From contig PDPP01000017.1 in NCBI GenBank assembly GCA_002747515.1, forward strand, positions 4,392 to 68,391: a DNA stretch of 64,000 nt. Direction: 5' to 3'. A model generated the notes under the pieces. It saw only the letters and a program-made list of their open reading frames with translations, was not told where the DNA came from and searched no databases. The DNA is from Candidatus Moraniibacteriota bacterium. Lineage in GTDB: Bacteria; Patescibacteriota; Minisyncoccia; Moranbacterales; GCA-2747515. The translations under genes and the position numbers were made by a program. Below, piece after piece: positions 11,243 to 22,228 of this stretch (position 1 is the stretch's first letter; each line of letters begins with the position of its first letter).

Positions 11243-11379
11243 TTCATATTATTTTTACAAAGATAGGAATATAAAGAGTGAAGAATTTTATATTGTCATT
11301 CCAGCGCAAGTGGGAATTTAGTAAATATAAAATAAAAAATATTTTAAACAATATTGCAGAAGCAAGTTATAAAACATTT

Positions 11380-12954
11380 ATGAGAATTCTTTGGTTTACA
11401 TGGAAAGATAAGACGCATCCACTTGCAGGTGGTGCAGAGGTTGTCGCGAGTGAGCTAGGCAAACGTCTTGTATCTGATGGTCATGAGGTTGTTTTTATTG
11501 TTGGTGGATATAAAAAAAATAAAAAAGCTAGATCAAAAGAAATAATTGATGGTTACACAGTGATCCGTGTCGGTGGACGTTGGAGTGTGTATTGGCAAGC
11601 ATATAGATATTACAAAAAACATCTCAGAGGTTGGGCAGATGTTGTGATTGATGAGATGAATACGATGCCATTTTTCACAAAATATTACATAACAAAAAAT
11701 AAAAACACTCCTACTTGTCATTCTCGTGAAAGAAGAAATCCAAAAGATAAAAAAGATACACCGTGTCATTCTCGTAAAAGCAGAAATCCAGAATATGAAG
11801 AAAACACCTTTTGTCATTCTCGTAAAAGCAGAAATTCAGAACATGAAGAAGCTACCTCTTGTCATTCCCGCGCAGGCGGGAATCCAGAGAATAAAGATGT
11901 CGTTAAAAATCAAAAAAAATCCTTTTGTCACAATCACGAAGCAGAAAATTCACAAAATAAAAATCCACGCCAGTTTCTATTTGTTCACCAACTTTGTAGA
12001 GAGATTTGGTTTTATCAGATGTTTTTTCCACTCAATATTATCGGTTATGTGTTAGAATTTTTTTATCTGCGTTTACTCAATGATCAAGAAGTGATTACCG
12101 TGTCAGAGAGTACAAAAAAAGACCTCATGCGATATGGATTTAAAAAAGATCGTATTCACATTATTTCCGAAGGGATTCAATGTGAACCACTTGCACAATT
12201 ACCTGCAATACATCATGCAAAATATGACACGCCGACTATTCTCTCACTTGGTGCAGTGCGTGCGATGAAGCGTGCAGATCATATTGTCACAGCATTTAAC
12301 ATCCTCAAGTCCACCTCCTCCCACTCTCACAAAAACCTTTCTCATCTCCACGACAACTCTTGTCATTCCCGCGCAGGCGAGAATCCAGAATATGAAGAAG
12401 CTACCTCTTGTCATTCCCGCGCAGGCGGGAATCCAGGGAATAAAGATGTCGTTAAAAATCAACAAAAAACCTGTCAATCTATTCACAAAAATAACAATCT
12501 AAAATATAAACAACAAATCAAAAATGCAAAACTCATCATCGCAGGAGACATACATGATCCATATGCACAAAAAGTACTGCATAATGTCGCAAAATCTCCG
12601 TACAAAAACGATATCACTGTCCTCGGGCGAGTCTCTACAGAAAAAAAATGGGAACTCATGCAAAAAAGCCACCTCATCGCAGTTACCAGTATCAAAGAAG
12701 GATGGGGACTCATCGTCACAGAAGCAGCGAGTCAGGGCACACCGGCAGTAGTTTATGATGTAGATGGACTCAGAGATGCAGTGGAGTGGGGTGATGCAGG
12801 ATACATGACAAAAGACAACACGCCAAAGGCACTGGCAAATGAAATGATACAAGCATTGCAAGATGAAGATAAATATGAGAGAATACGCCAATATGCATGG
12901 CACAAATCACAAAAACTTACTTTTGAAAAAAGCTACAAAGACTTTTTTCTGTGA
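11380..12954 (+). CDS. GT4 glycosyltransferase carrying two in-frame tandem arrays of a degenerate palindromic repeat (possible pseudogene or repeat-tolerant enzyme)
   Basis: The N-terminus MRILWFTWKDKTHPLAGGAEVV and the C-terminus GWGLIVTEAASQGTPAVVYDVDGLRDAVE match a GT-B/GT4 fold. The ORF is open from GTG 11278, but 11278-11379 is itself a degenerate repeat copy, so ATG 11380 is preferred. The interior encodes repeated CHSR(K/A)(S/G)(R/G)NPE peptides derived from the repeat DNA. Confidence 0.55.
   Translation: MRILWFTWKDKTHPLAGGAEVVASELGKRLVSDGHEVVFIVGGYKKNKKARSKEIIDGYTVIRVGGRWSVYWQAYRYYKKHLRGWADVVIDEMNTMPFFTKYYITKNKNTPTCHSRERRNPKDKKDTPCHSRKSRNPEYEENTFCHSRKSRNSEHEEATSCHSRAGGNPENKDVVKNQKKSFCHNHEAENSQNKNPRQFLFVHQLCREIWFYQMFFPLNIIGYVLEFFYLRLLNDQEVITVSESTKKDLMRYGFKKDRIHIISEGIQCEPLAQLPAIHHAKYDTPTILSLGAVRAMKRADHIVTAFNILKSTSSHSHKNLSHLHDNSCHSRAGENPEYEEATSCHSRAGGNPGNKDVVKNQQKTCQSIHKNNNLKYKQQIKNAKLIIAGDIHDPYAQKVLHNVAKSPYKNDITVLGRVSTEKKWELMQKSHLIAVTSIKEGWGLIVTEAASQGTPAVVYDVDGLRDAVEWGDAGYMTKDNTPKALANEMIQALQDEDKYERIRQYAWHKSQKLTFEKSYKDFFL
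11716..11887 (+). repeat. Four tandem 48-nt units (28-nt palindromic core TGTCATTC(C/T)CG...GAAATCCAG plus a 20-nt linker) inserted in-frame in the GT4 gene
   Basis: Cores start at 11716, 11764, 11812 and 11860, an exact 48-nt (16-codon) period. The first three are A/T-mutated variants and the fourth is near-consensus (tgtcattcccgcgcaggcgggaatccag). Confidence 0.8.
12361..12436 (+). repeat. Second in-frame insertion in the same GT4 gene: two 48-nt-spaced copies of the palindromic core
   Basis: The cores are tgtcattcccgcgcaggcgagaatccag (12361) and tgtcattcccgcgcaggcgggaatccag (12409). Low-complexity flanks on either side. Confidence 0.8.
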
Positions 12955-13831: not shown

Positions 13832-15016
13832 TTGATTAAAAATAGTATGTGTATATATTTTTTTGAATTACCAAAAACAGGACATAATATAAGTGGTGGC
13901 GAAAATTGTTTACTTGAAAATATTAAATATTTTAGTAAAAAGTATCGATGTATAATTATTACAACTGATTTGGCAGAAAAAATTTTCAAAGAAAGGCTGG
14001 GTGGTAATTTAAAAAATGTAGAATATAGAACAATTTCAACGAGTGATAAGGAGGGAAATTTAAATATATTTTTTTCTTATGTTTTAAGAACTGTAAAAGC
14101 AATTTTTTTGGTTAGTAGAATTAAATTAAATAATCAAGATGTTTTAATATGCAATTCAGATTTTTTTCCAAATTCTATTCCTTTCTTTATTTTTGCAACA
14201 ACGAAAAAAAGTGTAAAAATTTTTTATTGGTGGAGAGTTGTGGCTCCCTCTATTTTTAAGGGATTTGAGGGACAATATACGGGTCGATATCAAATTCCGA
14301 AAATTAATGTTGTTCATTATAAAATAAATCAATTATTATACATATTATTAACTAAAAAAAAGGGTATAATAATAACTCATGCCCCAGCATATTATGATTA
14401 TCTTTCAAACAAGTTCGCAAAAAATCAAATCAGGGTCATTAAACCCTATGGAGGCCATGAAAAAGTCGTTTTTAATTGTAAAGAAAAGATAATTGATATT
14501 ATATGGATGGCTAGATTTCAAAAATTGAAAGGTCTTGATAATTTTATAAATATTGTAAAAAAAATTCAAAAAGATATCCCCAATATAAAAGTGGTTATTT
14601 TGGGAAGTGGGAATAAAAAGGAGATAAATAAACTCAACGAAGCAATATTAAAAAATGGTCTTAGTAAAAATATTAAATGCAAAGGATTTGTTTTTGGACA
14701 ACAAAAGAGTGATTTTCTTTCGCAGTCGAAAATTTTTGCGATGACAAGTTATTTTGAAAGTTACGGACAGGTTATTGTGGAATCTATGGCACACGGCCTT
14801 CCTATTGTTTCATATGACCTTCCTACGTTTACAGTTTTTTCTCGTGGAATCATAAAAGTTCCAATTCTTGATGATGATAGTTTTTCTAAAGAAATCATAA
14901 AATTGTTATCAGATAAAGAAAAATTGCAAAAGTTTTCGGAAGACGCAAAAGAATTCTCATCGGGATTTTCTTGGGATAAAACAAATTCTGCAATCGAATC
15001 AATCATTAATTGTTAA
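13832..15016 (+). CDS. GT4 glycosyltransferase
   Basis: The C-terminal GT4 motif is FAMTSYFESYGQVIVESMAHGLPIVSYD, with the EX7E-like region. The gene is very AT-rich. Confidence 0.55.
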   Translation: MIKNSMCIYFFELPKTGHNISGGENCLLENIKYFSKKYRCIIITTDLAEKIFKERLGGNLKNVEYRTISTSDKEGNLNIFFSYVLRTVKAIFLVSRIKLNNQDVLICNSDFFPNSIPFFIFATTKKSVKIFYWWRVVAPSIFKGFEGQYTGRYQIPKINVVHYKINQLLYILLTKKKGIIITHAPAYYDYLSNKFAKNQIRVIKPYGGHEKVVFNCKEKIIDIIWMARFQKLKGLDNFINIVKKIQKDIPNIKVVILGSGNKKEINKLNEAILKNGLSKNIKCKGFVFGQQKSDFLSQSKIFAMTSYFESYGQVIVESMAHGLPIVSYDLPTFTVFSRGIIKVPILDDDSFSKEIIKLLSDKEKLQKFSEDAKEFSSGFSWDKTNSAIESIINC

Positions 15017-18000
15017 TAATTATGAAATTACAAGATAAGGATAATATCATAAATATAATTGTGATAATATTTTTTTTGTTTTTACCATACTTTATATTCA
15101 AAGGAAATTTTCATATTGGTGGTGATGATTCACATCTATTTTATATATATCCGCAATTATGGATTGAAAATGTTTCAAATTCTACATGGACAAGTTATTC
15201 ATCTTTAGGATTATTTAGCAATCAATATTATTATAATCCATTGTTATATATTTTGTCATTTTTACACATTTTTTTTATTTCGAGTTATGTAATTCAAAAC
15301 ATTATATTCTCAACAATTTTTATTGGTGGTTTTGTATTTTTGAAGAATTTTTTATATGTAATTATTCCGCAGTCTAGAAGATATATTGTCGAAATCAATC
15401 TCAGTGGTTTTGTCTATATTTTTTCTCCAATTTTATTGATAACCCCTCTTAGAGCGTATTTGGCAAATATTTGGTTAATTCCTTTAATTCCATTACTTGC
15501 TTTTTTGTTTTCTAAATATTATAAAACAAATCATTTCAAGTATAACACTCTAATTGGAATTGTATCTTTCTTTTTTGCACTAGCTTTTAATGCTGTTCCG
15601 TGGCTTTTGGGAGTTATTCTGCCACTTATTTCTGGGGTTTTAATTGGGGTGTTTTTTTTGAAGAAGGCAAGAGCATATAATCTTCTTAAAAAATTTTTTT
15701 TATCTGGGTTGTTAATTGGTTTAACTCAATTATTTTGGCTATTCCCCTTTTTTATGTCAGTTATGTCGTCACATAATTCTGTGGGATCAAAAGTTTTTAA
15801 TGATGAATTTGAAAATACATTTATAAAGGAAGTCTTAGCAACTTCTGCTAACACAACGATTTTAGATCCTTTAAGGAATTTTTTCCATATCGGACTACAG
15901 GAAAATTTTAAGTGGTCAACTTTACAATTATATTCTAATTGGTATTTAAAAATTGATTTTCTTAATTATATTTTTCCAATTATAATATTTTTGGGAATTA
16001 TATTATCTTACAAGAATTTGAAAAGGGTTTATCTAGTTTTTTTATTTCCATTTATCGTGTCCTTGTTTTTATTTACGGTTAAGATTGGTTTATTGAAAGA
16101 CTTCTTTATGATATTGGGCAATATTCCTGGATTTGTTATGTTTAGAAATTTTTATGATAAATTTTCTATAGGCTATGTTTTTTTCTTTTCAATAATTATT
16201 TGTTTTTCATTAATTTTTTTAAAAAACAGTTTAAATAGATCAGGTATCTATAAATTAATATTAATCGTGATAGCATTTGTTGTTTTGTATGATTCAAAAC
16301 CGTTAATTTTTGGGGATGTTTTTAATGATAATATAAGAGGAACAAATTCTGTTGGTCAAAATATTATAATTCCGCAAGAATATTTAAATTTTATGGATCA
16401 TGTATCTAAAGTTGTTCCACATTCATCGAATATTTTTGATGTTCCATTTGGTAATTCTGCGTTTACTATTATTGTTGGAGAATCTGGCCATTCTGTTTTT
16501 TCTGGTAAGTCTCCTGTAAAGTTATTTAGTGGCATTAATGATTTTAGCGGAAAGCTTTCATTTGATAAAGAAACTTCTAAAATTATTTATAAATTTATCA
16601 GAGAAAGAAAATATTATAAACTAAGAAATCTATTAAGTATTTATAATATTAATTATGTTTTTGAAACAAATAATATTCCTTTTGAAATTTTAAATTCGCA
16701 TCTCTATTCTGAAAAAATTTTAAAAAAGCAAGATGAAATTTTTAGGGATAATATGTATGGTGATTTAATTTTTTCTAGTATAAATAAAAATTATAATTTA
16801 TATTCTTTAAAGAAAAATGAATCAGGAAATTCTCAAATAATAAATTTTCCCAAAAATATATATTTGTATGAAGATGTCATTGATCAGAGAATTAGAGAGT
16901 CTTTAATGAGTTTGGTGAACTCAGAAAATGTTTTTGTTAGAGAGAAATTACATGGCATTAATAAATTAAAAAAAATTGAAAAATTAACAGAGGACTCCGA
17001 GTATGAAGATCATAAGCGTTCATCTATTTTGATTGTAGATGAATTGAATGTTGGGCTGTTGTCTTTTGAAGAAAGTGATAAAAATATGTATATATCAAAT
17101 GTATATGATTATATTTTTGATAAAAAAAATTCGAAAGTATTTCAAGAAAATATTTCTTCAGATTCTTTAATTGAAATTAATCAAAAGATTTATAATATAA
17201 AAGACGTTGATTATATTCCGATAGATACCGAATCTTCAAAAATTAAACTGTATACAAAATCTTTAGACAATATACTCGAATCAAGTTTTGATATTTATAA
17301 AAATTGGAAAAAAGGTGATTGTAATGCGCATGATGGCAATCGCGAAGTTTTTTTTAACTTTGACGTTGAAAAAAACAGTCTTGTTTTAAAATCTCAAAAT
17401 AATCATAATGCATGTACTTATTCTAATATTGATATTGAAAAAAATGAAATTTATTCTTTAGTTTTTGATTATGAAACTAATAATGATAGAATTACTGTTT
17501 TTATTGAGTTATCAGATGGTGAATTTATTAAACGTGAAGAAAAAGTTAATCAAAAAGGACAATTTAATCTAACATTTAAAAATCCTATTGATGATGATAT
17601 AAAATTATATTTATATTCAGGAGAATCAAGTGATAAGAGTATCACTGAGTATTTTAATGTTAGGTTATTCAAATATAATTTTTTAAAAGAATTTGATGAT
17701 ACAGATATTGCAATTGATAATTTACATTCTCGTTATATTCCAGGTAATTCTCTGAGTAAAAGAATGAAAATTATATCTCCAGTTGTAAATAATGTTGATG
17801 AGTTTTCAAATTCATTTGAAAACTGGAAAAAGGGTGATTGTGGTGCAATTAATTTGGAAAAAAAAGTTTTTTTTAACAATATTTCAAATAATGAAATAGA
17901 ACTAAAATCTAGTGATGGGCATAATGCTTGTATGCATAAGTCAATTTCAATTGATAAGAATTATAAATATGATTTATCTTTTCAATACATGAATAAAGAT

Positions 18001-18762
18001 TTGGATTATATTGATATTTATATTGATTATGGAAAAAATAACAATCCACAAAAAATAAGAAAGTCTGTACAAATTGGTCAGTGGGAAGATTTGTCTTTTG
18101 AAATATATCCGCCTCGTGATGCAGAAAAAATGACTATATATTTTTATTCAGGAAAGTCACAAAATTCTAATTACACACGTAGTGTTTATAAAAATATTAA
18201 GTTATCCTATAGTCTAAGGGGTTATTACAATAATCTGTTGGTTGAAAATGATGGGGATATCTCAGAGATAAAACCTGAAGTGTCTTTCAAAAAAGAAGCA
18301 AATTATCAATATAGGGTTTTTATTTCTTCAATTACTCGTCCTGAATTATTGAATTTTGTGGATTCTTATCATCCAAAATGGAATATTTTTGCCATTGGAA
18401 CAGATGGAAAAAAAGTGGGAATTAATGCTCAGCATGTAGAAGTCAATCGTTATTCAAATGGATGGGTAATAAACCCAAAAGAGATATGTGAAAACAATAA
18501 AAATTTTTGCGTTAAAAATGAAGATGGTAGCTATGACATGGAAATGACGATAGAATTCGTTCCACAAAGGTGGTTCTATTTAGGGTTGTTTATAAGTGGA
18601 ATAACGTTTATGAGCTTGATCGGATTTTTGGGATATGATTTTGTGAGGCGTCGCAGAGTGAAAAGGTATGGTTTGCAGCGTGGTGATGTGGGTGGAGAGA
18701 AGCGTTTTGGCGGTTCTGGTTCGCGTTCGCGGAGGTGTAGTACACGTGGTGTGCGACGGTAG
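15010..18762 (+). CDS. Giant polytopic membrane protein, possibly a GT-C-like glycosyltransferase, with a large extracytoplasmic region containing an internally duplicated ~150-aa beta-sandwich/CBM-like module
   Basis: The first ~430 aa contain about 12 TM helices. Two internal repeats share NWKKGDC..(K/R)(E/K)VFFN...HNAC. A C-terminal TM helix is followed by an Arg-rich tail. The gene is AT-rich and overlaps the upstream gene by 7 nt. Confidence 0.35.
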   Translation: MLIIMKLQDKDNIINIIVIIFFLFLPYFIFKGNFHIGGDDSHLFYIYPQLWIENVSNSTWTSYSSLGLFSNQYYYNPLLYILSFLHIFFISSYVIQNIIFSTIFIGGFVFLKNFLYVIIPQSRRYIVEINLSGFVYIFSPILLITPLRAYLANIWLIPLIPLLAFLFSKYYKTNHFKYNTLIGIVSFFFALAFNAVPWLLGVILPLISGVLIGVFFLKKARAYNLLKKFFLSGLLIGLTQLFWLFPFFMSVMSSHNSVGSKVFNDEFENTFIKEVLATSANTTILDPLRNFFHIGLQENFKWSTLQLYSNWYLKIDFLNYIFPIIIFLGIILSYKNLKRVYLVFLFPFIVSLFLFTVKIGLLKDFFMILGNIPGFVMFRNFYDKFSIGYVFFFSIIICFSLIFLKNSLNRSGIYKLILIVIAFVVLYDSKPLIFGDVFNDNIRGTNSVGQNIIIPQEYLNFMDHVSKVVPHSSNIFDVPFGNSAFTIIVGESGHSVFSGKSPVKLFSGINDFSGKLSFDKETSKIIYKFIRERKYYKLRNLLSIYNINYVFETNNIPFEILNSHLYSEKILKKQDEIFRDNMYGDLIFSSINKNYNLYSLKKNESGNSQIINFPKNIYLYEDVIDQRIRESLMSLVNSENVFVREKLHGINKLKKIEKLTEDSEYEDHKRSSILIVDELNVGLLSFEESDKNMYISNVYDYIFDKKNSKVFQENISSDSLIEINQKIYNIKDVDYIPIDTESSKIKLYTKSLDNILESSFDIYKNWKKGDCNAHDGNREVFFNFDVEKNSLVLKSQNNHNACTYSNIDIEKNEIYSLVFDYETNNDRITVFIELSDGEFIKREEKVNQKGQFNLTFKNPIDDDIKLYLYSGESSDKSITEYFNVRLFKYNFLKEFDDTDIAIDNLHSRYIPGNSLSKRMKIISPVVNNVDEFSNSFENWKKGDCGAINLEKKVFFNNISNNEIELKSSDGHNACMHKSISIDKNYKYDLSFQYMNKDLDYIDIYIDYGKNNNPQKIRKSVQIGQWEDLSFEIYPPRDAEKMTIYFYSGKSQNSNYTRSVYKNIKLSYSLRGYYNNLLVENDGDISEIKPEVSFKKEANYQYRVFISSITRPELLNFVDSYHPKWNIFAIGTDGKKVGINAQHVEVNRYSNGWVINPKEICENNKNFCVKNEDGSYDMEMTIEFVPQRWFYLGLFISGITFMSLIGFLGYDFVRRRRVKRYGLQRGDVGGEKRFGGSGSRSRRCSTRGVRR

Positions 18763-18776
18763 TGGTTGGTTTTTTT

Positions 18777-19070
18777 CTGGATTTCCGCTTTTGTGGGAAT
18801 GATGAGGGTATGGTGGGAATTGTTGGATTCCCGCCTCCGCGGGAATGACAGGGGGTATGGGAATGACAAGGGGGACGCGCGGGGGTGACATAGACTATAG
18901 TGGAAACCTCTGGATTCCCGCCTTCGCGGGAATGACACAGTGCGATATAGTGGTAGTTTCTGGATTCCCGCCTTCGCGGGAATGACAGGGGGGTATGGGA
19001 ATGACAAAAGGGGGCGCGGGAATGACAAGGGAGGTGCGGGGTGACGTATGAGATGTGGGGTTTGTAATGT
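18777..19070 (+). repeat. Repeat island A: clustered copies of the 28-nt palindrome CTGGATTCCCGCC(T/C)(T/C)CGCGGGAATGACA with GGGAATGACA(R)GGG sub-repeats
   Basis: Core copies lie at 18824, 18910 and 18960, and a degenerate copy at 18777. The island is GC-rich within an AT-rich genome and the units are 50-95 bp. Confidence 0.8.
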
Positions 19071-19098
19071 TATGTTGTTGAATATATAATGATCTTTT

Positions 19099-19674
19099 AT
19101 GGATATAATGAGAAAACAGAAAAATACGGTTGATTTGCGTGGTGGTGTGTTACGACAAGAGCAGAGGCATCGACATGGCACGCGGCGATCTTTTGATACG
19201 CAAAAGCATGCAAATGCGATATCTCATAGGAAATATATGGATGCGCAATCATATACAGTATCACAGAAGCAACAACAAGAAAGAGTGAAAAAAAATGGGC
19301 AGAATACCAAAAAATTTCAATTATTGCAAAAGAAACATTCTGTTTTATATAATAGTATTGGTGGAGTTGTGTTTTTTTGTGTGATTATAGGTCTTTTTGT
19401 TTTTACGGAGTTGACGAGTATTGATATTTTCTTTTGGACATTTTTTCTGTCGCTTTTTTATTGGCATATTGATAGTCGTGTTTCAATTGGTGGAGCTTTG
19501 GCGTGTCTTTTGGCAATTCCAGTTTTACTTATTGCAGAAAATAACTTTGGATATATCAATGGTGGTGTGTGGGCAGAAGAAGTTGCGGTGTGGGCATATT
19601 TTTTTCTCGTGATTGGTGTGGTGAAACAAATCTATGAATATATATGGGAGTCAAAAAGACTGAAGTCATCATGA
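19099..19674 (+). CDS. Hypothetical protein with a basic N-terminus and C-terminal TM helices, embedded between repeat islands
   Basis: ORF of 191 aa with a hydrophobic C-terminal half and no recognisable motif. The true start may be internal. It could also be a non-genic ORF. Confidence 0.25.
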   Translation: MDIMRKQKNTVDLRGGVLRQEQRHRHGTRRSFDTQKHANAISHRKYMDAQSYTVSQKQQQERVKKNGQNTKKFQLLQKKHSVLYNSIGGVVFFCVIIGLFVFTELTSIDIFFWTFFLSLFYWHIDSRVSIGGALACLLAIPVLLIAENNFGYINGGVWAEEVAVWAYFFLVIGVVKQIYEYIWESKRLKSS

Positions 19675-19688
19675 TGTTTTTTGTGGTT

Positions 19689-19895
19689 CTCTGGATTCCC
19701 GCCTTCGCGGGAATGACAAAGGGGAGCGCGGGAATGACAGGGGGGACGCGCGGGGGTGACATAGGCTATAGTGGAAAACTCTGGATTCCCGCCTTCGCGG
19801 GAATGACAAAGGGGAGCGTGGGAACGACAAAAGAGACAAAGATGATGTTTTTTATAATTATGTTATCCCCGCGAAGGCGGGGATCCAGGAATTTT
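19689..19895 (+). repeat. Repeat island B: two forward palindrome copies (19691, 19781) followed by a ~50-bp module containing the inverted-orientation core (ATCCCCGCGAAGGCGGGGATCCAGG, 19866-19890)
   Basis: Identical in layout to island A units (gacgcgcgggggtgacatagNctatagtggaaa). The island ends 7 nt before the GIY-YIG start codon. Confidence 0.8.
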
Positions 19896-19897
19896 TT

Positions 19898-20182
19898 ATG
19901 AAACAGTATTATGTATATATTTTAGCTAGTCAGAAAAATGGTACTTTGTATATTGGAGTGACGAGTAATTTGCAAAAAAGAGTTTTTGAACATAAAGAAA
20001 AGTTGGTTGCAGGGTTTACAGAAAAGTATAATGTAGATAAATTAGTGTATTTTGAACAAACAGGTGATGTGCAATCTGCACTTTTGAGAGAGAAGCAATT
20101 GAAAAAATGGAATAGGGATTGGAAATTGAAATTAATTGAAGAAAAAAATCCGCAATGGAATGATTTGTATGATTTTTTGTGA
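19898..20182 (+). CDS. Small GIY-YIG domain nuclease (UPF0213/YhbQ-like stand-alone GIY-YIG protein)
   Basis: YVYILASQKNGTLYIGVTSNLQKRVFEHK matches the GIY-YIG catalytic motif. The 94-aa size is typical of stand-alone GIY-YIG proteins. Confidence 0.7.
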   Translation: MKQYYVYILASQKNGTLYIGVTSNLQKRVFEHKEKLVAGFTEKYNVDKLVYFEQTGDVQSALLREKQLKKWNRDWKLKLIEEKNPQWNDLYDFL

Positions 20183-20184
20183 TT

Positions 20185-20512
20185 TTCTGGATTCCCGCAT
20201 GCGCGGGAATGACGAAGTGGACGTGGGAATGACAAGGAGTATAGTGAAAGTCTCTGGATTCCCGCATGCGCGGGAATGACAGGAAGGGTGCGGGAATGAC
20301 ATGGGAGACGTGGGAATAATATGATGTGCGTGAATGAGACGGGGTGTGTGCATGAATGACATGGATTATAGTGAAAGTCTCTGGATTCCCGCCTGCGCGG
20401 GAATGACAGGATGGGTGCGGGAATGACAGGGGAGGGTACGGGAATGACAAGGGGATGTAAGGATGATGTTTTTTATAATTGTGTCATCCCCGCGAAGGCG
20501 GGGATCCAGGGG
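20185..20512 (+). repeat. Repeat island C: three forward palindrome copies (20187, 20254, 20381; loop variant CATG/CTG) plus a terminal ~50-bp module with the inverted core (20486-20510)
   Basis: The island begins 3 nt after the GIY-YIG stop codon. Its terminal module ggatgatgttttttataattgtgtcatccccgcgaaggcggggatccagg is near-identical to 19843-19890 (upstream island B). Confidence 0.8.
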
Positions 20513-20521
20513 GTGTAATGA

Positions 20522-22228
20522 ATGACTAAGAGTGTTATGAAAAAATTTATTTTGAAATATCAGCATGGTATTTTTGCGGTTGTGGGTGCAGTTGTTGTGC
20601 TTTGGCAGATGCTTTTGCCAGGTTATGTTTTGTTGCTTGACTGGATTGCTGGTCCGAGTAATGTATTTTCGTATTATACGCTTTCGGATATTATGCATGC
20701 GCCAAGTACAGGGTTTATATATTTTTTGCAAATGTTTTTATCTGCATGGTTTGTCCAAAAAATATTTTTATTTGGTCTGTTTTTTGTCTTGTTTTATTTT
20801 CCTTTAAAATTTCATCCAAAGGAGATTTTTGATGCAATAGCACAGGATAAACCTACAATTATAAGCGTAAAATATTTTACATCAGTATTTTTTGCATGTA
20901 ATCCTTTTGTATATGAACGGTTTTTAGCGGGACAATGGCGTGTGATTATTGGCTATGCATTTATGTTTCCAATGGTTTATTATCTTTTTAAATTTTGGAA
21001 TAATCGATCATGGCATGCGATGGTCGGTGCTTTTGCAACATTATTTTTTGTGGGTATTTGGTCTGTACATTTTCTTGTGATTGGCGGAATTATGTTTTTG
21101 ATCTATGTATCTATTTTGTTTGTGGCAAATTTGAAAAATAAGGGTGTATTATGGGATGTGAGCAAAAAACTTCTCTTTGGTATTCTTGTTTTTATGGCGT
21201 TTAGCTCTTATTGGATTGTGCCATATATGTTGCAAAATGATAAAACAGTGGAGTATTTCGATGCTAGTCATCAAAAAGCTTTTGCTACAGCAATAGATCC
21301 AAAAGTTGGTGCTTTGGGCAATGTGATAACGCTGCGTGGTTTTTGGGGAGAAAGTCATGCTTGGGCGGATCAATTTGTAATGCCAGGTGATAACACTGTT
21401 GTTTTTTATATGAGTTTTTTTGTGATTATCACACTTAGTATTATTGGTATACGCATACTATGGCGTGATGTGAAAAATCGAGGGTTTGCAGTGTTTTTGG
21501 GTGTTTTTTTTATGTTGAGTGTGATTTTTTCTGCAGGAATTAGTGTAAATTTTTTGTGGAAGATTAATGAATGGCTCTTTGAGAATGTTTCGTTTTGGTC
21601 AGGATTTCGTGATACACAAAAATGGTCCGGCATAAGCGCAATGATTTATGTGCTATTGGCAAGTGTAGGTGTGAATTTACTTGTGCATAGTTGCAAAAAT
21701 CGTCTTGCACAAAAGATAGTATTGGGAGTGTGTTTATTGTTGCCAATTTCACTTGTTTCTAATATGCCTTTTGGATTTAGTGGACAAATTCACTCAGTGC
21801 AGTATCCAGAGCAGTGGCATAAAGTAAATGTTATTTTGAAAAAAGATGACGAATGCAAAATGATTTTTTTGCCATGGCATCAGTATTATTCAGTAAAGTT
21901 CAATAGTGGTATGCTCATTGCTAATCCAGCAAAAAAGTTCTTTGATTGCATTGTTGTGACCGGACATAATACAGAGCTAGGAGGCATTGCCTCAATTGCA
22001 GGAGATGTGAAACACTATCATGAAATGGAATCATTTGTTATGTCAAACAATCCTCAAGATGAATTTATAGAAAAAGGTATTGCGATGTTGCGACAAAATA
22101 ATGTGCGTTATATCGTGTGGACCAATGATTTAGAAGGACATGATTTATATCGTTATCCGTTTCTGCACTCTAGTCAATTGGAAGAGATTTATAATGGTGA
22201 CGGCATTGTGATGTATAAGATTAAATAG
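20522..22228 (+). CDS. Polytopic membrane protein, hypothetical (possible GT-C-like or YfhO-like glycosyltransferase)
   Basis: The protein is 568 aa with more than 10 TM helices in the N-terminal two-thirds and a soluble C-terminal domain. No specific catalytic motif was recognised. Confidence 0.35.
   Translation: MTKSVMKKFILKYQHGIFAVVGAVVVLWQMLLPGYVLLLDWIAGPSNVFSYYTLSDIMHAPSTGFIYFLQMFLSAWFVQKIFLFGLFFVLFYFPLKFHPKEIFDAIAQDKPTIISVKYFTSVFFACNPFVYERFLAGQWRVIIGYAFMFPMVYYLFKFWNNRSWHAMVGAFATLFFVGIWSVHFLVIGGIMFLIYVSILFVANLKNKGVLWDVSKKLLFGILVFMAFSSYWIVPYMLQNDKTVEYFDASHQKAFATAIDPKVGALGNVITLRGFWGESHAWADQFVMPGDNTVVFYMSFFVIITLSIIGIRILWRDVKNRGFAVFLGVFFMLSVIFSAGISVNFLWKINEWLFENVSFWSGFRDTQKWSGISAMIYVLLASVGVNLLVHSCKNRLAQKIVLGVCLLLPISLVSNMPFGFSGQIHSVQYPEQWHKVNVILKKDDECKMIFLPWHQYYSVKFNSGMLIANPAKKFFDCIVVTGHNTELGGIASIAGDVKHYHEMESFVMSNNPQDEFIEKGIAMLRQNNVRYIVWTNDLEGHDLYRYPFLHSSQLEEIYNGDGIVMYKIK

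Follow-up and report, generated by a model that had tools for sequence, protein, structure and literature searches.

Introduction

The founder of the Ssn family of nucleases is SsnA of Neisseria meningitidis, described by Chenal et al. (Nat Commun 2025; PMC11893778). The homologs assayed, which come from three Neisseria species (N. meningitidis, N. elongata, and N. wadsworthii) and from Wolbachia, bind the hairpin of the Ssn-related motif (SRM) only in single-stranded DNA and cut it just upstream. The meningococcal enzyme restricts transformation, its activity being directed at incoming single-stranded transforming DNA that bears the motif; this role is shown in Neisseria only, and the role in other bacteria was left unknown (PMC11893778). 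In the same study, the family is delimited operationally by an E value below 1e-10 against Neisseria SsnA, the dRS3 repeat is defined, residues Y6, Y17, and E64 of SsnA are mutated, and the GTC before the stem and the C after it are the motif positions that mattered most in mutagenesis. The conserved domain in the family definition, CDD cd10448, carries the name GIY-YIG_unchar_3. No later work on Ssn, SRM, or cd10448 came up in a literature search, which returned the original paper alone.

Here, we analyze a window of 64 kb (the whole stretch of 64,000 nucleotides) from a Moraniibacteriota MAG, in which an island of palindromic repeats surrounds a small GIY-YIG nuclease gene. The island is very probably an Ssn/SRM locus, a fresh example, in a bacterium of the candidate phyla radiation, of a system published in 2025, and it places that system in the Moraniibacteriota lineage. 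The association of nuclease and repeats was rediscovered from raw sequence in an initial annotation of the window, and the main value of the follow-up is that the right name and a mechanism can now be attached to it.

Architecture of the repeat island

The repeat is a 28-mer, CTGGATTCCCGCCYTCGCGGGAATGACA, present in the window in 13 copies with up to three mismatches, compared with 0.00 expected from 100 shuffles. Ten of the 13 are found at 18823-20509, around the nuclease gene; eight of these are on the + strand as written, with loops that vary between CTCC, CTTC, CATG, and CCTG, and two are inverted, at 19861-19888 and 20482-20509. The three clusters in which the repeats occur have a GC content of 0.53-0.55, compared with 0.35 for the window. 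Thus the description in the initial annotation, of GC-rich 28-nucleotide palindromes with eight + strand copies of varied loop, stands, as do its sub-repeats, which are nine GGGAATGACA half-sites outside the full copies. The two inverted copies were missing from it. When folded as single-stranded DNA, each copy gives an 8-bp stem and a 4-nt loop with a dG of −8.7 to −9.7 kcal/mol and a z-score of about −4.2 to −4.7, the outcome of a folding-energy check that had been proposed there.

All three clusters have the sense of the Neisseria NTS element on the − strand. Cluster A (18777..19040) contains a decayed copy at 18777-18804, full copies at 18823, 18910, and 18960, and half-sites at 18859, 18997, and 19018. 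Cluster B (19691..19829) contains full copies at 19691 and 19781, each followed by half-sites with a period of ∼21 nt, and a TATAGTGGAAA spacer. Cluster C (20187..20449) contains full copies at 20187, 20254, and 20381 with half-sites at 20225, 20292, 20419, and 20440; its TRF consensus period is 67 nt and the actual SRM spacings are 67 and 127 nt. The half-sites build tandem arrays of 21 nt as detected by TRF, and the composite arrays share an 82-nt module, with SRM-to-SRM spacings of 50-127 nt. The two inverted copies belong to a different, 52-nt module (repeat family D6), which includes a TATAAT sequence and occupies both 5′ leader positions. One copy (19838..19889, + strand) consists of GATGATGTTTTTTATAAT and a variant SRM directly upstream of the nuclease gene, and is 94% identical to the other (20459..20510, + strand), which includes the SRM at 20482-20509 and stops 12 nt ahead of the next gene. 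Both carry the compensatory stem ATCCCC/GGGGAT. There are two compensatory stem variants, differently placed, and it is the variant stem that lies just before gene starts.

The initial annotation took the nuclease gene to be the only coding gene in the island, which does not hold. An open reading frame of 191 codons (19099..19674, + strand), with clusters A and B on either side in an ‘SRM-gene-SRM’ arrangement, has homologs in 188 cluster representatives at E ≤ 1e-3, of which 79 reach E ≤ 1e-10. Conservation falls on residues ∼85-187 of the product, which has a conserved C-terminal membrane domain; Pfam and NCBIfam scans gave no match to the protein. Judged by this conservation, it is a real gene too. 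Upstream of the island, a membrane protein of 1250 aa that includes a carbohydrate-binding module (15010..18762, + strand; Pfam CBM_4_9, E = 2.3e-6) ends 15 nt before cluster A. Downstream is a 568-aa polytopic membrane protein (20522..22228, + strand) that is MmpA-like but below the family cut-off (NCBIfam NF053599, E = 2.8e-46, 158 bits; cut-off 210). Pfam scans of the neighboring genes returned envelope, polysaccharide, CofD, and ABC-transporter families only, with no Cas family among them. A CRISPR array was considered and rejected: the copies lie at irregular distances of 46 to 712 nt, what would be the ‘spacers’ consists of repeats too (half-sites and shared modules), and the copies run in both directions.

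The nuclease and its predicted motif

The ssn gene (19898..20182, + strand), the only one in the window, encodes a single-domain GIY-YIG nuclease of 94 aa, as had been annotated (Pfam PF01541, residues 3-77, E = 2.5e-17). An AF2 model (pLDDT 94.9) shows one compact GIY-YIG domain whose nearest folds are UPF0213, Slx1, and the N-terminal domain of UvrC, and both Pfam and the model indicate that an extra DNA-binding domain is absent. By blastp, a 94-aa SsnA ortholog of N. gonorrhoeae shows 61% identity to the protein (E = 5e-41), and a tblastn search of the chromosome that encodes it (NZ_CP119140.1) gives E = 2e-29. This ortholog, recognized by its length and by Y6, Y17, and E64, served as the reference in place of the meningococcal protein itself, and it is through the gonococcal ortholog that the E value falls below the published family limit. 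NZ_CP119140.1 is a chromosome that is mislabelled as a plasmid in PLSDB. Residues Y7, Y18, and E65 align, with equal spacing, with the three gonococcal residues just named, and together with R28 they are the catalytic equivalents in the protein, invariant in alignments of 14 and of 26 sequences. Judged by homology and by Pfam superfamily, the protein very probably belongs to the Ssn family.

The identity of the repeat is found on its reverse complement, TGTCATTCCCGCGAAGGCGGGAATCCAG, which equals the Neisseria NTS/dRS3 element at 27 of 28 positions. The initial annotation stated that nothing in the island matches a known defined element, and this was wrong because the repeat is the NTS/dRS3 motif, that is, the Ssn-related motif. 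The published degenerate pattern, HGTCWYN(0-2)YYVSBRHN(0-5)WNVSBRGN(0-2)RNCYNB, finds 11 sites in the window, compared with none in 100 Markov simulations. Matches are located upstream of ssn at 18910, 18960, 19691, and 19781, and downstream at 20187, 20254, 20381, and 20482; the copy at 18823 has a loop beyond the published degeneracy. The dRS3 core ATTCCC-N8-GGGAAT occurs at 10 sites, each counted on both strands, and is replaced by the variant stem in the two inverted copies. The full 28-nt NTS consensus, CGTCATTCCCGCGMAVGCGGGAATCYRG, has no exact match in the window: most copies begin with T, not with the C of Neisseria, and the single copy that begins with C has the loop GCGCATGC. Without its first base, the consensus is matched exactly at seven sites.

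Two of these motifs enclose the gene. The upstream SRM (19861..19888, + strand; variant TGTTATCCCCGCGAAGGCGGGGATCCAG) reads in the NTS sense along the strand of the gene and stops 9 nt short of the ATG, and the downstream SRM (20187..20214, − strand; CGTCATTCCCGCGCATGCGGGAATCCAG) reads in the NTS sense along the other strand and starts 5 nt past the stop codon. The downstream motif fits the published pattern, and the upstream copy falls outside it because GTT, not GTC, lies just before the palindrome. Apart from this copy, the GTC before the stem and the C after it are retained. The palindromes of the island are the predicted cognate Ssn-related motifs of the ssn protein, and their 27/28 likeness to Neisseria shows how tightly this small protein constrains its DNA target. 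As a natural pair of enzyme and site from an AT-rich host, the two may be useful in tool development.

Association of ssn and SRM in other genomes

The initial annotation proposed co-localization as a check on the association, and the result is in its favor. Ten of the 13 copies are no more than 1.1 kb away from ssn, which occurs once in the window, and the probability of finding 10 of 13 in the 1.74 kb around it is about 6e-14 (binomial). Among 80 loci of GTDB relatives, spread over many phyla, 54 carry an SRM no more than 300 nt from the ssn gene and 27 have SRMs on both sides. In these relatives an upstream SRM shares the strand of the gene (36 lie within 100 nt) and a downstream SRM has the other strand (34 lie within 100 nt), so that the usual form is an inverted SRM pair around ssn, like that at 19861-19888 and 20187-20214. 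The closest relatives (80% identity) have the same SRM arrangement in a different gene neighborhood. Homologs show 62-80% identity across many phyla, and several loci have two copies. The cassette is also found on viral or proviral contigs; SRMs accompany it on 15 of the 26. Homology between the DNA of cassettes from different contexts or genomes ends at the SRMs, spanning 335-424 nt; for example, two cassettes within one MAG (L012 and L024) are 81% identical over 363 nt. Arrays of 5′ half-sites with a 21-nt period recur in many phyla and in the gonococcus. The main text of PMC11893778 does not mention the Moraniibacteriota group, 21-nt arrays of 5′ half-sites, a stem variant before gene starts, or seven in-frame copies in a glycosyltransferase gene such as those described below.

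A proposed mode of action

The core unit is the cassette SRM(+)-ssn-SRM(−), at 19861-20214. By analogy with the assayed homologs, the strand TGTCATTCCCGCG-AAG-GCGGGAATCCAG, once single-stranded, would fold into the 8-bp hairpin, and Ssn would bind this hairpin together with its oriented flanks, the GTC before the stem and the C after it. The enzyme is then expected to cut the strand of the hairpin on the 5′ side of the motif, a few nucleotides away, as shown for homologs of ∼61% identity, which for the full copies of clusters B and C predicts cleavage of the − strand shortly 5′ of TGTCATTCCC. The GTT copy next to ssn would be expected to bind the enzyme but to be cut poorly. The homologs do not act on double-stranded DNA, on RNA, or on the complementary strand, and none of these would be a substrate here. 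The suggestion in the initial annotation that the nuclease acts on the repeats has been demonstrated experimentally for the protein family (PMC11893778) and applies by analogy to this protein.

Around the cassette, the motif has probably been amplified into the composite arrays of full sites and 5′ half-sites that flank neighboring envelope genes. Our best guess is that the role in this bacterium would be as in Neisseria, in the control of single-stranded DNA intermediates and of recombination at genes for surface structures. The cassette itself probably originated as a selfish element, or still acts like one.

Alternative explanations

A rival reading, raised in PMC11893778 itself, is that SRM-ssn-SRM (about 350-420 bp) is an autonomous mobile cassette, similar to an insertion sequence, whose movement or copying depends on Ssn cutting at the hairpins of its ends. 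On that view the arrays, the half-sites, and the copies within genes would be its non-autonomous derivatives or footprints, analogous to REP/BIME elements with RAYT. This overlaps with the Ssn/SRM explanation and does not exclude it. In its favor are the inverted SRM pair, tight against the gene in most loci, the end of homology at the SRMs, the occurrence of two copies in several loci, the presence on viral and proviral contigs, and the spread of similar cassettes across many phyla. From the biochemistry of the homologs, each motif is predicted to direct a cut to its own strand on the 5′ side, and these cuts would lie just outside the two ends of the cassette. Against it, GIY-YIG enzymes hydrolyze DNA, and we know of none that performs strand transfer or ligation, which leaves no transposition chemistry to cite. 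No target-site duplication or empty site was found, a comparison limited by the fact that a scan of a metagenome collection with the 568-aa downstream protein gave no close relative. Furthermore, copies in the same genome are only about 80% identical and therefore none is recent, and the GC content of ssn (0.29) suggests adaptation to an AT-rich host and points to long residence. On balance, we consider autonomous mobility of the cassette a possible, if somewhat doubtful, interpretation. Its most specific form appears unlikely: that the cassette moves autonomously by a mechanism that defines a new class of mobile element, in which a GIY-YIG enzyme nicks single-stranded hairpins at both ends and on opposite strands, yielding the 21-nt half-site arrays, the composite arrays at envelope genes, and 48-nt in-frame insertions. 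If true, REP/RAYT would have in the cassette a counterpart that extends across phyla and, in bacteria of the candidate phyla radiation, reshapes proteins as well.

Ordinary REP-type hairpins, acting as terminators, mRNA stabilizers, or protein-binding sites and lying beside an unrelated nuclease gene by chance, would also be stable, intergenic, and GC-rich, and the two copies that occupy 5′ leaders, as part of the TATAAT-bearing 52-nt module, would suit such a function. A scan of 18400-20800 found no enrichment of promoter-like matches, 7 compared with 5.9 expected from shuffles. None of these accounts for the clusters, and no terminator-like site lies in them, the sole regional match (20601) being inside the next gene. 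No U-tract follows the stems, and intrinsic terminators were rejected on these grounds. Rfam gave no family above threshold in the whole window. The motif is also specifically bound by homologous proteins (PMC11893778), and its association with ssn recurs, in fixed orientation, in loci from unrelated phyla. Chance proximity is very improbable, and effectively refuted because of the co-localization statistics. It is similarly hard to credit that the gene is a housekeeping GIY-YIG gene of the UPF0213/YhbQ type, a homing endonuclease gene standing on its own, or the remnant of a group I intron. The protein resembles the UPF0213 structures 1zg2 and 1ywl in fold and approximate size, but this similarity is weak (E = 0.012 and 0.12, about 26% identity) compared with that to Neisseria SsnA, and UPF0213 proteins form a separate clade with no reported association with repeats (PMC11893778). 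A match to TIGR01453 (group I intron endonuclease) covers 30 residues and is below threshold (24.7 bits; cut-off 56), the protein, at 94 aa, lacks a DNA-binding domain, and no intron RNA was found in the window by Rfam. The initial annotation had named a YhbQ ortholog, in syntenic context and without repeats in relatives, as one finding that would speak against its proposal; the gene is no such ortholog, it is not syntenic with the closest relatives, and these carry the repeats.

Comparison with other repeat systems

The locus shares with SsnA/NTS of N. meningitidis a nuclease of the same size and catalytic residues, a near-identical motif, and motifs that lie on both sides of the gene and cluster around membrane and envelope genes. 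It differs in its host, in the first base of the motif, and in its two stem variants with distinct positions. The inverted pair is tight here, whereas the gonococcal locus is more complex.

We take the composite arrays to resemble the Neisseria dRS3 repeats and intergenic mosaic elements (NIMEs). They have in common the dRS3 core, longer units delimited by palindromes, and runs of half-sites after a full site, as also seen at the gonococcal locus. Unlike these, inter-palindrome units such as TATAGTGGAAA are local, and are not found in Neisseria or the closest relatives. REP/BIME elements with RAYT (IS200/IS605-like Y1) are likewise short hairpins recognized in single-stranded DNA, form mosaic arrays, and include one small nuclease gene flanked by its own repeats. 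Here, in contrast, a hydrolytic GIY-YIG nuclease takes the place of the HUH/Y1 transposase, it is not known to form a covalent intermediate or to transfer strands, and the flanking hairpins are inverted, on opposite strands and not on one. REP/RAYT and IS200/IS605 were rejected as identifications of the island, whose other gene encodes the 191-aa membrane protein.

Motif copies within a glycosyltransferase gene

A second SRM locus (11294..12436, + strand) bears out the initial annotation, which had placed the same repeat family inside a GT4 glycosyltransferase gene. Seven copies, three good and four AT-decayed, lie within or at the start of the open reading frame, all with their NTS-sense on the coding strand. 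They recur in frame every 48 nt (16 codons) and translate as 16-aa units, CHSRAGGNPEYEEATS. Both Pfam GT4 domains are broken at the two repeat clusters, and it is this interruption that delimits the in-gene repeats, the GT4 of a relative being too distant to delimit insertions. In N. meningitidis, intragenic NTS make up only 2% of the total (PMC11893778), which sets these in-frame copies apart from that system.

Along with the half-site arrays and the two stem variants, the in-frame amplification in GT4 could guide the study of how such repeats spread. Palindromic elements of Rickettsia (RPE) reportedly insert in frame into genes, according to Ogata et al. in 2000. RPEs are about 100-150 nt in length, and the SRM-based units here are 48 nt; by description only, the two are alike in being palindromic repeats within an intact open reading frame that are translated as extra peptide.

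Repeats around ssn and their identity

The initial annotation described a GC-rich island of 28-nt palindromes (18777-20512) around a GIY-YIG nuclease gene, here called ssn (19898-20182, + strand). The 28-mer occurs in 13 copies in the 64-kb window at up to three mismatches, with none expected from shuffling, and the clusters have a GC content of 0.53-0.55 vs 0.35 for the window. Eight copies have the + strand sequence CTGGATTCCCGCC..GCGGGAATGACA and are split over three clusters, A (full copies at 18823, 18910, and 18960), B (19691 and 19781), and C (20187, 20254, and 20381). Two inverted copies (19861-19888 and 20482-20509) carry a compensatory stem change, ATCCCC/GGGGAT replacing ATTCCC/GGGAAT, and a further one, at 18777, is decayed. 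After each full copy, its last 10-12 nt (GCGGGAATGACA) recur once or twice with a 20-21 nt period; nine of these half-sites are outside full copies, TRF identifies 21-nt arrays, and a TATAGTGGAAA spacer is found 5' of five full copies. Folding as single-stranded DNA gives every copy an 8-bp stem and a 4-nt loop, with dG of -8.7 to -9.7 kcal/mol (folding z approximately -4.2 to -4.7). The hairpins are neither terminators nor known RNAs. The copy counts, half-sites, GC content, folding, and the presence of ssn as the sole GIY-YIG gene of this kind in the window therefore confirm the island as real and non-random. The GC-rich, Arg/Gly-rich last ∼40 codons of a 1250-aa ORF (18640-18762) adjoin cluster A, and may be derived from old repeat sequence.

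The island had been thought to match no known element, which proved incorrect. In Neisseria meningitidis, the 94-aa SsnA consists of a single GIY-YIG domain (CDD cd10448), and its target, NTS, is CGTCATTCCCGCGMAVGCGGGAATCYRG, containing the dRS3 core ATTCCC-N8-GGGAAT (Chenal et al., Nat Commun 2025, PMC11893778). SsnA binds NTS as single-stranded DNA only, and on one strand only, cleaves a few nucleotides 5' of it, and makes transformation less efficient when the DNA carries NTS; related hairpins, termed Ssn-related motifs (SRMs), flank homologs from many phyla (PMC11893778). In the reverse complement of the window repeat, TGTCATTCCCGCGAAGGCGGGAATCCAG, 27 of 28 positions agree with the NTS consensus, and with the first consensus base left out seven copies are exact matches. 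Furthermore, the published degenerate SRM pattern finds 11 sites in the window vs 0 in 100 first-order Markov simulations of it. Window copies keep the positions rated most important in PMC11893778, namely GTC before the stem (for cutting) and C after it (for binding). The island is thus a new example of a known system, Ssn/SRM, and the functional link between nuclease and repeats that the initial annotation raised has been shown for homologs (PMC11893778).

The Ssn protein

The assignment of ssn as a 94-aa stand-alone GIY-YIG nuclease was upheld (PF01541, E=2.5e-17). The Ssn sequence is the same as that of a hypothetical protein from a Candidatus Moraniibacteriota MAG, and it has at least 8000 database relatives. 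A tblastn search of a plasmid collection matched N. gonorrhoeae NZ_CP119140.1 (60.7% identity, E=2e-29), where the ORF is also 94 aa, is situated among NTS copies, and has Y6, Y17, and E64, the residues mutated in PMC11893778. The two proteins are 61% identical over 89 residues (E=5e-41), and the gonococcal residues align with Y7, Y18, and E65 of the window protein, which together with R28 are invariant in alignments of 14 and of 26 homologs. NZ_CP119140.1 is a 2.17-Mb replicon deposited and typed as a ‘plasmid’ (as is NZ_CP119142.1) and is evidently the N. gonorrhoeae chromosome; other multi-megabase records among the matches look similarly mislabelled.

The AlphaFold model contains one GIY-YIG domain (pLDDT 94.9). 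Among solved structures, none of which is of an Ssn protein, UPF0213, Slx1, and the UvrC N-terminal domain come closest to its fold. A YhbQ ortholog was rejected because the matches to UPF0213 (YhbQ-like) proteins are weak, at E=0.012 and 0.12.

Association in relatives

The published SRM pattern was applied to the best 80 loci of GTDB species genomes, in which ssn identity is 61-78%. These span Patescibacteria, Omnitrophota, Bacteroidota, Gamma- and Betaproteobacteria, Desulfobacterota, Nitrospirota, Rickettsiaceae, and others. The co-localization suggested for relatives was borne out, with an SRM within 300 nt of ssn in 54 of the 80 loci and on both sides in 27. SRMs upstream share the strand of the gene, and 36 of them are no more than 100 nt from its start; those downstream are on the other strand, with 34 no more than 100 nt from the stop. 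The window shows the same geometry, with 19861-19888 (+) ending 9 nt before the ATG and 20187-20214 (-) beginning 5 nt past the stop.

The closest relatives, at 80% identity, are Moranbacteria GW2011_GWE2_35_2- and a related MAG. Their neighbourhood is different (GT4, 117-aa gene, ssn, 120-aa gene, Wzy_C) but the arrangement of full sites and half-sites is the same, which argues against a housekeeping gene in conserved context whose relatives lack repeats. In several loci (L023, L040, L066, L081, and L083), a further, divergent ssn homolog with 48-64% identity to the query lies less than 5 kb away. A locus labelled uncultured Bdellovibrionales (L007) shares 92% DNA identity over 1.08 kb around ssn with two from Moranbacteria (L005 and L001), which suggests that the ‘Bdellovibrionales’ MAG has been misbinned or misclassified, or else a very recent transfer.

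Features beyond the published description

The main text of PMC11893778 does not describe half-site arrays, stem variants, or copies in a GT4 ORF, and the words ‘tandem’ and ‘NIME’ are absent from it; it does report trans cleavage of split half-sites. The arrays consist of copies of the motif's 5' half lying, in the sense that folds as the Ssn target, 19-23 nt upstream of a full site. They accompany 14 of 141 full SRMs scanned (18 for a wider range of 14-44 nt). Tandem 5' half-sites with a period of ∼21 nt occur across unrelated phyla and motif variants (L006, L028, L032, L046, L047, L063, L066, and L083) and also beside gonococcal ssnA (L112, 1364-1425).

Both stem variants, ATTCCC and ATCCCC, are found together at single cassettes in other loci. 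Three viral contigs (L095, L101, and L109) have one ATTCCC/GGGAAT and one ATCCCC/GGGGAT site per cassette, like the window, and therefore the variants coexist widely. In the window the variant SRM is part of a 52-nt module (TTTTTTATAAT plus hairpin) directly 5' of two start codons. Its copies (GATGATGTTTTTTATAAT plus the variant hairpin; 19838-19889 and 20459-20510) are 94% identical and precede the starts of ssn and an MmpA-like gene. The module may be a shared promoter or leader; scanning for consensus sites gave no sigma-70 promoter call here. The SRM immediately 5' of ssn (19861-19888) has GTT before the stem, not the conserved GTC. It may be bound but poorly cleaved, because mutating these three bases mainly affects cutting and not binding (PMC11893778).

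The same repeat family was correctly recognized within a GT4 gene (ORF 11278-12954, +), which holds seven SRM-derived copies (11294-12436), all sense on the coding strand. The spacing of recurring copies is exactly 48 nt, equal to 16 codons. The copies translate to CHSRAGGNPEYEEATS-like 16-aa units and break both Pfam GT4 domains at the two repeat clusters; four of the seven are AT-decayed. In this respect they resemble Rickettsia palindromic elements, which are in-frame insertions. If translation really begins at the ATG of codon 35, the first copy (11294) may instead lie in a 5' leader.

Is the cassette mobile?

The SRM-ssn-SRM unit (19861-20214) could itself be a mobile element, an idea already raised in PMC11893778 and compatible with the Ssn/SRM explanation. 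The inverted SRM pair is tight against ssn, and cassettes in different contexts share DNA homology that ends at the SRMs (335-424 nt). Identity is high across phyla. Multiple copies are present in several genomes and loci, and 26 viral or proviral contigs carry the cassette, 15 of them with SRMs. However, no strand-transfer chemistry is known for GIY-YIG enzymes, and a metagenome scan with the 568-aa downstream protein gave no relative and hence no empty site. Copies within a genome are old (∼80% identical), and the GC content of ssn, 0.29, suggests long residence. On balance we consider mobility possible but rather unlikely.

Genomic setting and proposed role

Contrary to the view that ssn is the only coding gene of the island, clusters A and B flank a second real gene, a 191-aa ORF (19099-19674, +). 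Its homologs number 188 cluster representatives, of which 79 reach E<=1e-10, and a membrane domain at the C terminus is conserved. It belongs to no Pfam or NCBIfam family. The neighbourhood of ssn is an envelope-polysaccharide cluster (GT2, deacetylase, flippase, GT4, CBM protein, and MmpA-like protein); in Neisseria, NTS copies similarly cluster around genes for surface proteins (PMC11893778).

By analogy with the homologs, the NTS-sense strand would fold when single-stranded, this being the - strand for the eight canonical copies and the + strand for the two variants. Ssn would then bind the hairpin and its flanks and nick 5' of it. Substrates in vivo might be transforming strands as they enter the cell, or other intermediates in single-stranded form, and dense SRM arrays could modulate recombination around envelope genes. 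Strand asymmetry of the window bears on which strand of each SRM is exposed as single-stranded DNA. GC skew is positive in all 1-kb bins of the window (1-64000) but one, and nearly all ORFs of at least 150 aa between 5 and 30 kb are on the + strand, consistent with a single replichore with co-oriented genes.
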